Shown: positions 21,876 through 25,237, numbered from the stretch's first letter. The stretch: DNA of 64,000 nucleotides from an uncultured Chloroflexia bacterium (GCA_963835655.1 CAWIGJ010000003.1:868372-932371), one strand, 5' to 3'. Notes: a model not told the origin generated them from the sequence alone. Made by a program: numbers and translations.

Positions 21876-23105
21876 GTGGAACTGGAAATACGGCCGGTAA
21901 GTAGCGAAGAGCTGGAAGAATTCACCTTCGCCAACCTCTACGCCTTCAACCAGGACCGTCGCCCCGAAACCGTGCATGACGCGGCACTGCGGCTGGCAGA
22001 GCGCATTGACTGGGAACTGCCGCTGGGCGCCTACCTCGACGGTCGCCTCGTCGCCGGCCTCCGCGTCATCCTGTCGACTATGCGCATCAATGGCGCCGAA
22101 CTGCCGCTGGCTGGAATCGCCGGCGTCGCCTGCCTGCCGGAGCACCGCCGCAAGGGCTACGTCGGCGCCCTGCTCAAGCGCGCGTTGATGGACATGCACG
22201 ACAGCGGCCGTCTGCTCTCCGCCCTCTACACGCCGCATGTTGCGCTCTATCGGCGCTATGGCTGGGAGATCGCCGCTCGAAACGTCCGCTATTCCTTCGG
22301 CCCGAAGGCCGTAAAGACTCGCGTCCCGCCGCCGTCTGCCGGGAGCATTCGTCGCGTCACTGTCGATCAGTGGCCCCTTCTTGACACCCTCTACGAGCAG
22401 TACGCTGCGTCGCGGAATTGCGTCATTGCTCGTCCGGAGCATTGGTGGCGCAAGCGCATCTTCGGCTGGGAACGTGAGGTGCCCGATGTAGCAGTCTATG
22501 AGGACGGCGAAGGGCGTGCGCGTGGCTATATCATATACGCGACGCGCTCCGGCCAGCCGCCCGACCGACCCTGGCCTCAGACGCGAATGTGGGTGCGCGA
22601 GTTGGTTACACAGGATGGCGAAGCCTATATTGCCCTGATCAACTATCTCCTCTCGCACGACATGCACGAACGCATCGAAATGCAGGTGCCGCCTGATGAC
22701 CCACTCCTCAACCTCCTCGACGATCCGCACCAGGTCGAGGTGCAGGCGTGGTCTTCGCTGATGCTCCGCATTGTCGACGTGCCGGCGGCGCTGCGAGTGC
22801 GAGGCTGCCGGCCTCAGATTGAGGCACGGCGCTTCACCATCGCTGTCAGAGACAAAATATTGCCCTGGAACGAAGGGGCGTGGTCGGTCGAAGCGGCCGG
22901 AGACGTTTTGAACGTCGATCGATACTACGGCGAAGCAGATCTGACGCTCGACGCAACGGTTTTGGCGGCGGTCTTCTCAGGGCATCTGTCGGTCCAGGAA
23001 GCGGCCCGAGCCGGACTCATCGAAGTCGCGAGGCCGGAGACGGTGGATGCCGCAAACGCAGCGTTCGCTCTCGACCGTCCGCCATTCTGCCTCGACTACT
23101 TCTGA
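21876..23105 (+). CDS. Eis-like GNAT acetyltransferase with C-terminal SCP2-like domain
   Basis: VACLPEHRRKG, LYRRYGWE and MLRIVDV..AL motifs. Confidence 0.88.
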   Translation: MELEIRPVSSEELEEFTFANLYAFNQDRRPETVHDAALRLAERIDWELPLGAYLDGRLVAGLRVILSTMRINGAELPLAGIAGVACLPEHRRKGYVGALLKRALMDMHDSGRLLSALYTPHVALYRRYGWEIAARNVRYSFGPKAVKTRVPPPSAGSIRRVTVDQWPLLDTLYEQYAASRNCVIARPEHWWRKRIFGWEREVPDVAVYEDGEGRARGYIIYATRSGQPPDRPWPQTRMWVRELVTQDGEAYIALINYLLSHDMHERIEMQVPPDDPLLNLLDDPHQVEVQAWSSLMLRIVDVPAALRVRGCRPQIEARRFTIAVRDKILPWNEGAWSVEAAGDVLNVDRYYGEADLTLDATVLAAVFSGHLSVQEAARAGLIEVARPETVDAANAAFALDRPPFCLDYF

Positions 23106-23296
23106 CCGCCTCGCCCGTCACGTGCGTCGCTATCTGGCCCTCCCTCAATCAGCCGCCTTCATCCTCTCCGTCTCCCCTGCGGAAGGAGCGTGAAAAATAC
23201 CGCGCCCCGCGTAGAGAAAGCGCGAACATGCCTCTTCCGTAGCAGGAAATCCGCGCGTTCAAAACGAAACGCATGAGGATGAATCATCAAGGGGAC

Positions 23297-23325
23297 TTGA
23301 CATTCAGGGAAAGGCAGCTTAGTCT
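23297..23325 (+). promoter_or_regulatory. sigma70 promoter
   Basis: TTGACA-N17-TAGTCT. Confidence 0.65.
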
Positions 23326-23331
23326 CTTAGC

Positions 23332-23407
23332 GCGGCTAAGGGGGATTGGGCGCCAGGGGGTGGAGTGGGACCACCGGCAGTACAGCCCCGCCGCCGGAGG
23401 TTAGCCG
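23332..23407 (+). ncRNA. Candidate structured 5' leader (cis-regulatory RNA)
   Basis: CGGCTAA(23333-39) pairs with TTAGCCG(23401-07) next to the SD and ATG. Nested GGCG/CGCC, GGG/CCC and GGTGG/CCACC stems. Confidence 0.4.
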
Positions 23408-24598
23408 ATGTTTCTTAGGGAACGGATTACCAGGCGCCGCTTCATAGTCATGACGGCAGCCATGGCCGGTGTTGCCGCCACAAGTCTTGGCGCCAGCAGC
23501 TGTGAACCGCCTGACCCCGATCCGCTGGTCCCCACTCGCGGACGCGAGCAAGGTATGGCCCACTTGGCCTGGGCCTGGCACTTCGGCGTCGACGGCCCAC
23601 CCGAGAAGATGGCCTCTGTTCTGGCGCAGAACAATCTAGGGCTGATCCTCAAGACCCACAACGGTACCGATTGGATGTCGAAATGGGACACGTCGGAGTG
23701 GGCCATTACCGGCCCTGGCCGTGTACAGGTGCTCGCCAACTACTTTGAGAAATACGGCATTCCCTTCCACAGCTACTGGGTTGCACAAGGACTGAACCCG
23801 CAGCTCGAAGCTTCCATGTGCTCCGACGTCATCAATGCGGGTGCTCGCAGTATCTTCGTCGACCTGGAGCCATGGGCGGGTTACTGGCAGGGTTCAGAGC
23901 AAAATGCGCAGCTCTTCGTGCAGCAGTTTCAGCAACTTCAGCCGAACGGAACGCTATATCTCTGCGTCGAGCCGCGCCCATGGGTTATGCCCCGTATCCC
24001 GATGGCCGAATTCGTTTCGATCAGCCAGGGCATTGCCCCAATGATCTACTGGGACACCTTCAACACGCCGGACAACATCAACTACTTCAACTCGAACGGC
24101 TGTCCAGTCGGGCAGGAAGGCATCTGCCCGGAGTTTCTGCTCGATGTCTCCAACTCCATGTTCTCAGGCTACCGGCTTCCCATCTATCCGGTCGGGCAGG
24201 GTGCGTCCAGCTACGATGCTTGGGTGCGCTTCCTCACCCGCGCTTATCAACTGAACATGGGCGCCGTCTCCGTCTGGCGCTATGGCGTTGCTAACCCTCA
24301 GATCTGGCCACTGCTGCACTACAATCAGCCACGACCGGGCATAAGCTGGGGGCAAGCCAGTCTTGCCGTCGGTGGCACCGCTACCGTAACTAACACCGGT
24401 TCCTGCCTGAACGTGCGCGAGTCCCCTTCAGCATACGCACGTGTAACCGGTTGCCTGTTCGACGGCAATGTGGCGACCATCCGGGACGGTCCGGTGGATG
24501 CCGACGGCTATCGCTGGTGGCTGGTGGAAACGAGTTCCGCCAGCGGCTGGGTCGCAGACAGCGACGGACAAGGGACTGTCTGGCTCACACCTTCCTAG
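23408..24598 (+). CDS. Tat-exported (lipo)protein with glycoside-hydrolase-like barrel and C-terminal bacterial SH3 domain
   Basis: TRRRFI Tat motif, Cys after the h-region, and LNVRE.PS...DGPVDADGYRWW SH3_3-like tail. The catalytic family is uncertain. Confidence 0.7.
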   Translation: MFLRERITRRRFIVMTAAMAGVAATSLGASSCEPPDPDPLVPTRGREQGMAHLAWAWHFGVDGPPEKMASVLAQNNLGLILKTHNGTDWMSKWDTSEWAITGPGRVQVLANYFEKYGIPFHSYWVAQGLNPQLEASMCSDVINAGARSIFVDLEPWAGYWQGSEQNAQLFVQQFQQLQPNGTLYLCVEPRPWVMPRIPMAEFVSISQGIAPMIYWDTFNTPDNINYFNSNGCPVGQEGICPEFLLDVSNSMFSGYRLPIYPVGQGASSYDAWVRFLTRAYQLNMGAVSVWRYGVANPQIWPLLHYNQPRPGISWGQASLAVGGTATVTNTGSCLNVRESPSAYARVTGCLFDGNVATIRDGPVDADGYRWWLVETSSASGWVADSDGQGTVWLTPS

Positions 24599-24762: not shown

Positions 24763-24791
24763 TTGTCGGGCGGAACTTGATTGTCTATAAT
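24763..24791 (+). promoter_or_regulatory. sigma70 promoter of the tRNA cluster
   Basis: TTGTCG-N17-TATAAT. Confidence 0.65.
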
Positions 24792-24835: not shown

Positions 24836-24910
<75 letters not shown>

Positions 24911-24913
24911 ATC

Positions 24914-25002
24914 GCCGAAGTGGCGGAACAGGTAGACGCGACAGTCTCAAAAACTGTTGAGGGGCAACCCTCGTGCCGGTTCGATCCCGGCCTTCGGCAC
25001 CA
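24914..25002 (+). tRNA. trnL: tRNA-Leu(CAA)
   Basis: GCCGAAG acceptor, ACAGT-CTCAAAA-ACTGT anticodon arm, long variable arm, CCA. Confidence 0.96.
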
Positions 25003-25068
25003 TTCGCGTTGTCCACGTGAGAGGCGGGATGCACCCGCTTTCATTAGTGTGGGGATAGCTTGGATCGC

Positions 25069-25142
25069 TGCCGAGTGGTGTAATGGTAGCACCAGGGACT
25101 TTGGATCCCTTAGTCCAGGTTCGAGCCCTGGCTCGGCAGCCA
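25069..25142 (+). tRNA. trnQ: tRNA-Gln(TTG)
   Basis: TGCCGAG/CTCGGCA acceptor, AGGGA-CTTTGGA-TCCCT anticodon arm, CCA. Confidence 0.96.
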
Positions 25143-25161
25143 GGAAATCTTCTTGTGGTGC

Positions 25162-25237
25162 TCCCCGATAGCTCAATCGGTAGAGCGGGCGGCTGTTAAC
25201 CGCTAGGTTGCAGGTTCGAGTCCTGCTCGGGGAGCCA
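25162..25237 (+). tRNA. trnN: tRNA-Asn(GTT)
   Basis: TCCCCGA/TCGGGGA acceptor, CTGTTAA anticodon loop, CCA. Confidence 0.96.

Follow-up and report, generated by a model that had tools for sequence, protein, structure and literature searches.

The locus and its gene

The leader described here lies in a window of 64,000 nt (the whole stretch of DNA that was analysed; all positions are counted from its first nucleotide) that belongs to a 2.49-Mb metagenome-assembled genome of the Dehalococcoidia (Chloroflexota). It precedes the gene of a predicted exported protein, P0001. The upstream neighbour is an Eis-like GNAT/SCP2 acetyltransferase gene, and four tRNA genes are located downstream of the P0001 gene. 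A preliminary description of this DNA had listed a promoter, a dyad, the two arms of an outer helix, a Shine–Dalgarno (SD) sequence with its ATG and two inner stems (GGTGG/CCACC and GGCG/CGCC), all of which were found exactly where it had placed them (Table 1).

Table 1. Features of the P0001 leader and gene in window coordinates
Feature	Position	Strand	Remarks
Conserved block CGCATGAGGATGAATCAT	23270–23287	+	5' of the −35 element; orthologue equivalent GCGCATGAGCGTGAATCAT
Promoter (believable)	23297–23325	+	−35 TTGACA 23297–23302, 17-nt spacer, −10 TAGTCT 23320–23325; read directly
Dyad CTTAGC-GCG-GCTAAG	23326–23340	+	CTTAGC 23326–23331, GCTAAG 23335–23340; inverted repeat I14; spans the predicted transcription start
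5' arm CGGCTAA of the outer helix H_A	23333–23339	+	inverted repeat I5; partner 23401–23407
G-rich tract with four G-runs	23340–23369	+	runs at 23340–23344, 23348–23350, 23356–23360 and 23367–23369; SD-like and GGA motifs; canonical G-quadruplex pattern
Hairpin GGTGG-AGTGGGA-CCACC	23359–23375	+	GGTGG 23359–23363, CCACC 23371–23375; in the window and in L107
uORF	23365–23418	+	GTG and 16 codons, then TAG; 2 nt off the main ATG frame; overlaps the main ATG
SD GGAGG	23396–23400	+	7 nt 5' of the ATG at 23408; read directly
3' arm TTAGCCG of H_A	23401–23407	+	7-nt SD–AUG spacer; inverted repeat I5
P0001 gene	23408–24598	+	396 codons (396 aa); TIM-barrel domain at about residues 50–310, C-terminal SH3_3; predicted Tat export

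The promoter is believable on the strength of its conservation, the arrangement TTGACA-N17(18)-TAG[G/T]CT being kept in about 25 distinct orthologue loci. It was not listed by a consensus promoter scanner, because its −10 element agrees with TATAAT at only three of six positions. From the promoter alone, transcription is predicted to start at about 23331–23333, and the 5' half of the dyad that follows the −10 element is probably upstream of the transcript. The block 5' of the −35 element recurs as GCGCATGAGCGTGAATCAT in several orthologues (L002–L004, L047, L049, L062, L109 and L112), and CGCATGAGGATGAATCAT is possibly a transcription-factor site. The SD sequence is matched by the 3' end of the 16S rRNA, in which CCTCC is present in the same genome.

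P0001 begins with a twin-arginine signal (RRRF) that scores just under the cut-off of TIGR01409 and ends in an SH3_3 domain detected at an E-value of 2e-4, under the gathering score. Between these termini lies a central region of about 260 residues without a sequence match in Pfam, NCBIfam or the PDB, and the same searches yielded no family assignment for the catalytic domain. The AlphaFold model (18 orthologues; mean pLDDT 81.7) shows a barrel of alternating beta and alpha elements and, after it, a beta domain. Its top Foldseek matches are 4krt, a phage endolysin with GH25 and SH3 domains, 5oq2, the peptidoglycan hydrolase Cwp19 of C. difficile, and GH79 enzymes; the best single-domain superposition is that on Cwp19 (TM 0.47/0.51, rmsd 5.7). 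Distant homologues of P0001 carry LysM in place of SH3, and a family name for the homologues was found in none of the sources examined. On this evidence P0001 is a reasonable, though not an established, candidate for an exported glycan hydrolase of the cell-wall type. The earlier label of a secreted glycoside hydrolase with SH3 was therefore roughly right: the Tat signal, the SH3_3 domain and the TIM barrel bear it out, but the barrel itself is without a family assignment. What emerges is an uncharacterised family, so far confined to the Chloroflexota, of Tat-exported TIM barrels with SH3 or LysM modules.

Conservation of the leader among orthologues

Orthologous loci were collected from 41 related genomes, from public genome and metagenome contigs and from the contigs that encode database homologues. 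They provide approximately 32 distinct, related leaders, in which the helix arms vary little. The promoter and the purine-rich leader are common to the orthologues, and the leader is always situated 5' of this Tat/TIM-barrel/SH3 gene. Its identity to the window ranges from 0.51 to 0.75, compared to a third-position identity of 0.42–0.58 in the codons of those gene pairs; in the closest pairs the leader reaches 0.74 and synonymous sites 0.51. The leader is therefore under purifying selection. It can be aligned even where the proteins share only 55–60% identity, and also where the reading frame is broken. Within it the decamer GGCCACCGGC is near-invariant regardless of frame, an invariance that the interpretation favoured below leaves unexplained.

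A nucleotide profile run over the whole genome with nhmmer returned a single site, the leader itself. The covariance model R1, searched against 18 genomes of the family, recovered the orthologue leaders and a few weak matches inside coding regions that had neither a promoter nor a start; alignment A5 was fitted to the model's own structure. A regulon was accordingly discarded as an explanation, nhmmer in the genome and R1 in the 18 family genomes having given the orthologous site only. The preliminary description had staked its proposal on conservation in homologous leaders, and conservation is what was found. On these alignments we regard the element as a real mRNA leader that is conserved and gene-specific within a group of uncultured Dehalococcoidia.

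Folding of the leader and its helices

The leader of the window folds no better than chance. Its minimum free energy (MFE) is −36.7 kcal/mol. Dinucleotide shuffles give −35.7 ± 3.1 kcal/mol (z −0.31), 70 out of 200 equalling or surpassing the window's leader, and the mean z-score over 29 distinct orthologue leaders is +0.16. The proposed sequestration of the ribosome-binding site (RBS) is not borne out as described: in the predicted ensemble the 7-nt spacer between SD and AUG is paired, but the SD is only partly so, with unpaired probabilities of 0.26–0.91, and opening the RBS (−17 to +12) costs 15.5 kcal/mol, the 75th percentile when ranked among 250 further SD-led genes from this genome. Exceptional occlusion of the RBS can be dismissed at that percentile. 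An anti-SD helix that would form between CCACCGGC and GCCGGAGG and stack on the outer one was likewise rejected at approximately 9 kcal/mol above the MFE fold of the window; both of its strands are invariant and the helix is consequently beyond the reach of covariation.

No single fold unites the leaders. RNAalifold applied to 21 leaders of all clades found essentially no common structure (−0.7 kcal/mol), and a consensus fold for the entire set was abandoned; within group 1, to which the window belongs, it gave −11.2 kcal/mol with a covariation term of −0.27. The outer helix H_A, by which the transcript's 5' end would pair with the SD–AUG spacer, is retained across the window's clade: pairing amounts to 92.8% in 16 leaders of the larger clade and to 153 of 168 cells (91%) in 24 distinct group-1 leaders, and in the window's subgroup most MFE folds have H_A as their closing helix. 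Its arms are near-invariant (CGGCTGA/TCAGCCG) and shuffled partners pair at 91.8%, so that pairing is indistinguishable from two conserved blocks. Double compensatory changes occur in two leaders only, L061 and the window, where a C-to-T change specific to the window in the 3' arm is offset by a G-to-A change in the 5' arm (A-U for G-C); a count of two is matched in 77 of 500 shuffles. In L107, the nearest relative at 76% protein identity, the arms read CGGCAAG/TCAGCCG and five of the seven pairs remain; four to five are kept in L055, L115 and L099. The outer helix of the preliminary description has thus survived as a conserved pairing, but with minimal covariation.

The inner stems fared worse. 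Among 16 orthologue leaders the GGCG/CGCC stem is paired in 57.1% and the GGTGG/CCACC stem in 55.8% of cells, with only the outer two to three pairs of the latter persisting; neither is conserved and both were set aside as elements of the leader's structure. In other subgroups (1b) a mid-leader CCTTCA(A/G)GC element serves as the partner of the 5' arm, with 94% pairing in 13 leaders. This mid-leader helix has a compensatory change in L099 and, when extended, further compensatory pairs, as in L055; 20–38 of 500 shuffles do equally well. The mid-leader partner is lacking in the window's subgroup. Overall the leader displays neither the covariation nor the stability beyond shuffles by which a structured cis-regulatory RNA would generically be recognised.

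Searches for known riboswitches

The preliminary description had made out a faint core resembling the ZTP (pfl) riboswitch and had proposed a translational switch. At gathering thresholds, Rfam detected four tRNAs in the whole window and nothing else; a permissive scan of 23100–23500 (E ≤ 10) gave no match on the leader strand, and a scan of 16 orthologue loci (E ≤ 1) matched no leader. The ZTP model RF01750 (gathering score 39 bits) is absent from the leader, from these orthologue loci and from the entire genome, and the stems that made up the presumed core are not conserved. The second class that had been considered, the c-di-AMP riboswitch (ydaO; RF00379, gathering score 38 bits), has three full-length copies with 77–91 bits at other loci of the genome and no match at 23100–23500. 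The covariance-model method is thus sensitive in this lineage, and the leader is not one of these elements. Membership of both classes is ruled out by these searches and the tentative ZTP-like call is withdrawn; nor did the analysis give any indication of ligand-dependent switching. A literature search on riboswitch candidates of the Chloroflexi and on SH3 returned nothing relevant.

Migration of the start codon

A sister clade sheds light on the origin of the leader. In group 2 (L007–L010 and L014) the codon at the position of the window's ATG is TTA, GTG, TTG, TTG or CTG and is not preceded by an SD. Located 48 nt upstream (42 nt in L014, owing to a 6-nt indel) is a conserved ATGGGAGAC, in frame and free of stops. 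In group 2 and in L054 the homologous ATG, in the context ATGGGAG, is an in-frame codon and has been called as the start; in the public gene calls the group-2 proteins begin with MGDFEPSG or MGDNGPSS and the L054 protein with MGSHRPSS. Members of the window's clade have GTG or ATG as the homologous triplet, which in most of them is out of frame, and subgroup 1b has ACG. In L042, L055 and L116 the triplet and the main ORF share a reading frame, and in L056 an internal deletion makes the adjacent GGAGG the SD of the gene. Of 30 distinct leaders, about 24 have ATG, GTG or TTG at the upstream site and five have ACG. On the alignments and gene calls, the start codon can be shown to have moved between clades.

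The region from 23365 onward, part of the supposed ZTP-like core, is by this alignment a homologue of N-terminal coding sequence, which explains much of the conservation between clades. In the window the upstream triplet is the GTG at 23365, with the SD-like GGGGGTGGA 5' of it; it opens 17 codons that end with the TAG at 23416–23418, 8 nt past the ATG at 23408. The leader hence combines an upstream start in an SD-like context with a stop that overlaps the main start. Frame, length and peptide of this upstream ORF (uORF) vary among orthologues, where it has between 2 and 18 codons or is fused to the gene in frame, and a conserved leader peptide was rejected on account of the variation in frame and length. 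The C-to-T change in the 3' arm of H_A that is specific to the window also creates an in-frame TAG at 23402–23404.

Interpretation of the leader

How, then, is the leader to be understood? It is unlikely to be functionless, that is, a decaying former coding sequence in which the complementarity of the arms is due to chance in GC-rich DNA. A single-sequence fold no better than chance, the weakened helix of the nearest relative L107 and a region that is in part demonstrably coding elsewhere all favour decay, but conservation clearly above that of synonymous sites in the closest pairs, and alignability at 55–60% protein identity even with the frame broken, speak against it. Decidedly unlikely is a role as the target of CsrA (or of another RNA-binding protein), in which a CsrA dimer would bind purine motifs containing GGA, one of them inside the SD, and repress translation. 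The genome encodes CsrA (C2:675721–675870; PF02599, 69.9 bits) next to a LuxR-type response regulator and not among flagellar genes, and the protein is found throughout the order (all 41 related genomes); GGA occurs four times in the leader of the window, once within the SD and once in the GGTGG/CCACC hairpin loop, and a motif of the form RGGGAU about 10 nt 3' of the 5' arm is kept in most orthologues. However, four GGA in 76 nt at 44% G are near the expectation from composition, which by our own estimate is about two, the hairpin that would present a GGA is not conserved, and the fourth G-run contains no GGA in seven leaders, where it reads GAGAGG or GAGGGG (L046, L047, L049, L050, L053, L114 and L116). 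The same G-runs could form a quadruplex in the RNA, or in the non-template DNA, that modulates translation or transcription. The genome has few canonical patterns, 79 over the two strands of its 2.49 Mb (0.016 per kb per strand), and one of them lies here on the sense strand; nevertheless, of 32 distinct orthologue leaders only 12 have four runs of at least three G with loops of 1–7 nt and 20 do not, and the alternation of GGGGG with GGAGG suits SD-like purine motifs whilst harming a quadruplex. We grant a quadruplex a very slight chance, and a conserved one was rejected on these counts. Selection at the level of the DNA, with the start-site dyad, the initial transcribed region or both serving as a repressor operator, appears exceedingly improbable. 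It would account for a 6+6 dyad with a 3-nt centre immediately 3' of the −10 element, for a similar dyad (TCGAC-GCG-GTCGA) at the same position in L099 and for the other conserved block 5' of the −35 element, but the dyad is imperfect in L107, differs in register or sequence in other orthologues and is absent or shifted in most, and conservation extends about 75 nt downstream, far past a typical operator.

It is very unlikely that the leader is a new lineage-restricted riboswitch or condition sensor, with the purine-rich core as the sensor and a 5' arm that has alternative pairings. Purifying selection on the leader favours such a device, as does the switch geometry of subgroup 1b, where the 5' arm can pair with either the mid-leader CCTTCAAGC or the SD–AUG spacer, and in L012 an 8-bp GGGCCTCC/GGAGGCCC repeat could sequester the SD, in competition with an upstream GGAGGC. 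Against it stand the lack of an Rfam family match, of a consensus fold across clades and of excess folding stability, covariation counts within the range of shuffles, the missing mid-leader partner in the window's own subgroup, the restriction of the motif to one gene per genome and the translation of part of the 'aptamer' as N-terminal coding sequence in group 2. The broader possibility of an undescribed cis-regulatory RNA of one Dehalococcoidia family, whose 5' arm toggles between the mid-leader partner and the SD–AUG spacer or whose purine core binds CsrA or a small ligand, is a distant prospect; if true, such an RNA would govern how much of a Tat-exported, cell-wall-active enzyme is made.

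The reading that we prefer, and to which we assign a probability of about one half, is that of an ordinary gene-specific structured leader without ligand sensing, which carries a relic or alternative upstream initiation site, now with an overlapping uORF. Positions 23332–23407 would constitute the purine-rich and weakly structured 5' leader of a Tat-exported TIM-barrel/SH3 protein that belongs to one Dehalococcoidia family, and its sole clade-wide helix would join the first 7 nt of the transcript (CGGCUAA) to the SD–AUG spacer (UUAGCCG). Inside the leader would lie an older initiation site, SD-like G-runs followed by NUG-GGA-G, at which the proteins of sister clades start according to the gene calls (MGD.../MGS...). 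In the window's clade a new SD and AUG may have arisen approximately 45 nt downstream of the old site, which would survive in the window as the GUG that opens the uORF. The terminal helix may tune initiation and/or protect the 5' end, and ribosomes loading at the upstream site would melt this helix and terminate over the main start, resulting in either coupling or competition.

The conservation of this leader thus stems in part from a start codon that has moved: identical positions code for protein in one clade, belong to a uORF in a second and stay untranslated in a third. This calls for caution in the hunt for riboswitches in uncultured GC-rich lineages. The expression signals of the P0001 family are unusually well conserved and amenable to simple reporter tests.

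Comparison with known systems

The ZTP riboswitch (pfl, RF01750) shares with the leader its G/C-rich character, a CCACCGG-like stretch and a 3' element near the SD, and in GC-rich bacteria ZTP elements usually act by translational control. The two differ in that the product of the gene behind the leader combines a Tat signal with a TIM barrel and SH3_3, the gene not being connected to purine or folate (one-carbon) metabolism, and in that covarying helices of two subdomains would be expected, whereas the GGCG/CGCC and GGTGG/CCACC stems of the window are not conserved. Riboswitches for c-di-AMP (the ydaO/kimA class) precede cell-wall hydrolase genes in some phyla and, as RF00379, the class is in use in the same genome; the leader, at about 75 nt, is unlike the 134-position model. 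Leaders repressed by CsrA, such as those of glgC in E. coli and hag in B. subtilis, likewise have several GGA motifs, one within the SD, in a genome that encodes CsrA; they differ from the leader of the window in that its GGA count is not clearly above composition and that the presenting hairpin is not conserved.

The 5'-terminal stem-loops that stabilise the ompA and aprE leaders resemble the present case in that the first nucleotides of the predicted transcript are paired. In contrast to those local hairpins, the partner in the window is 60 nt away beside the start codon, and the 5' end is a predicted one. Leaders with a uORF that overlaps the main start offer a further parallel. The window leader departs from them in having neither a terminator nor a stalling motif and no conserved frame, length or peptide, and in that some orthologues use the upstream start as their own. 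It shares with them an upstream NUG after SD-like purines and a stop 8 nt past the AUG, and, as in those systems, the helix over the main RBS would melt under the ribosomes of the uORF.

Conserved sequence upstream of the promoter

Sequence conservation extends beyond the leader and its promoter. A second conserved block, located immediately 5′ of the -35 element in the window, also precedes the -35 element in orthologue loci L002-L004, L047, L049, L062, L109 and L112. A TGTAACA(A) motif recurs farther 5′ of this block and, in other families of the order, likewise precedes orthologues. The TGTAACA portion is degenerate in the window. Signals 5′ of the -35 element, be it the block, the TGTAACA(A) motif or both, are listed for further loci (L007-L010, L014, L016, L017 and L020). 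The upstream element may be a transcription factor site. Past the GNAT gene and before the promoter, the minus strand carries a terminator-like hairpin with a T-run; no minus-strand gene ends at this hairpin, which could serve to stop antisense transcription or could have arisen by chance.

Features flanking the main gene and c-di-AMP riboswitches of the same genome (G000)
Feature	Location	Strand	Remarks
Terminator-like hairpin and T-run	window 23200-23225	minus	between GNAT gene and promoter
Second conserved block, GCGCATGAG-N-TGAATCAT	window 23270-23287		immediately 5′ of -35
Near-consensus promoter, TTGTCG-N17-TATAAT	window 24763-24791		precedes tRNA cluster
Cluster of four tRNA genes	window 24836-25234		directly 3′ of main gene
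Full-length c-di-AMP (ydaO-class) riboswitch	C2:673817-673948		covariance-model match
Full-length c-di-AMP (ydaO-class) riboswitch	C3:985305-985437		covariance-model match
Full-length c-di-AMP (ydaO-class) riboswitch	C2:548236-548372		covariance-model match

Start codons and upstream reading

Sites that are occupied by ATG or GTG start codons in relatives are in some loci occupied by ACG. The codon aligned to the ATG of the window is ACG in L054 (836-838), where the SD and spacer are retained before it, and the upstream start site is ACG in five leaders (L050, L052, L053, L061 and L112). In L115, near the GAAGGCTGG-ACG-GCG site, GAAGG and a further 4 nt are followed by ACG, which is GTG in L055. 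Specific to the window is a C-to-T substitution that turns the 3′ arm TCAGCCG into TTAGCCG and gives rise to an in-frame TAG at 23402-23404, directly ahead of the ATG. This stop shuts the in-frame upstream reading; the same reading is open in several orthologues (L004, L042, L050 and L053).

Orthologues and genomic surroundings

The L014 orthologue (G008:C1:1008928-1010107), which derives from a complete genome, matches in two pieces, residues 3-299 and 320-394, and in public protein P0064 a scrambled C-terminus takes the place of the SH3 domain; together these suggest a frameshift or assembly error in the gene. The same four-tRNA cluster recurs in at least one orthologue locus (L049).

Elsewhere in the genome, the three c-di-AMP riboswitches score 77-91 bits, and one is located ~1.8 kb 5′ of a CsrA gene (C2:675721-675870), from which a LuxR-type response regulator gene separates it. 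The CsrA model also matches the ORF at C3:542177-542395, through two distinct segments that cover model positions 2-27 and 12-50. ORFs with this split match are 117-130 aa long and occur genus-wide at equivalent loci in relatives, besides canonical CsrA; the product may be an unusual CsrA-like protein.
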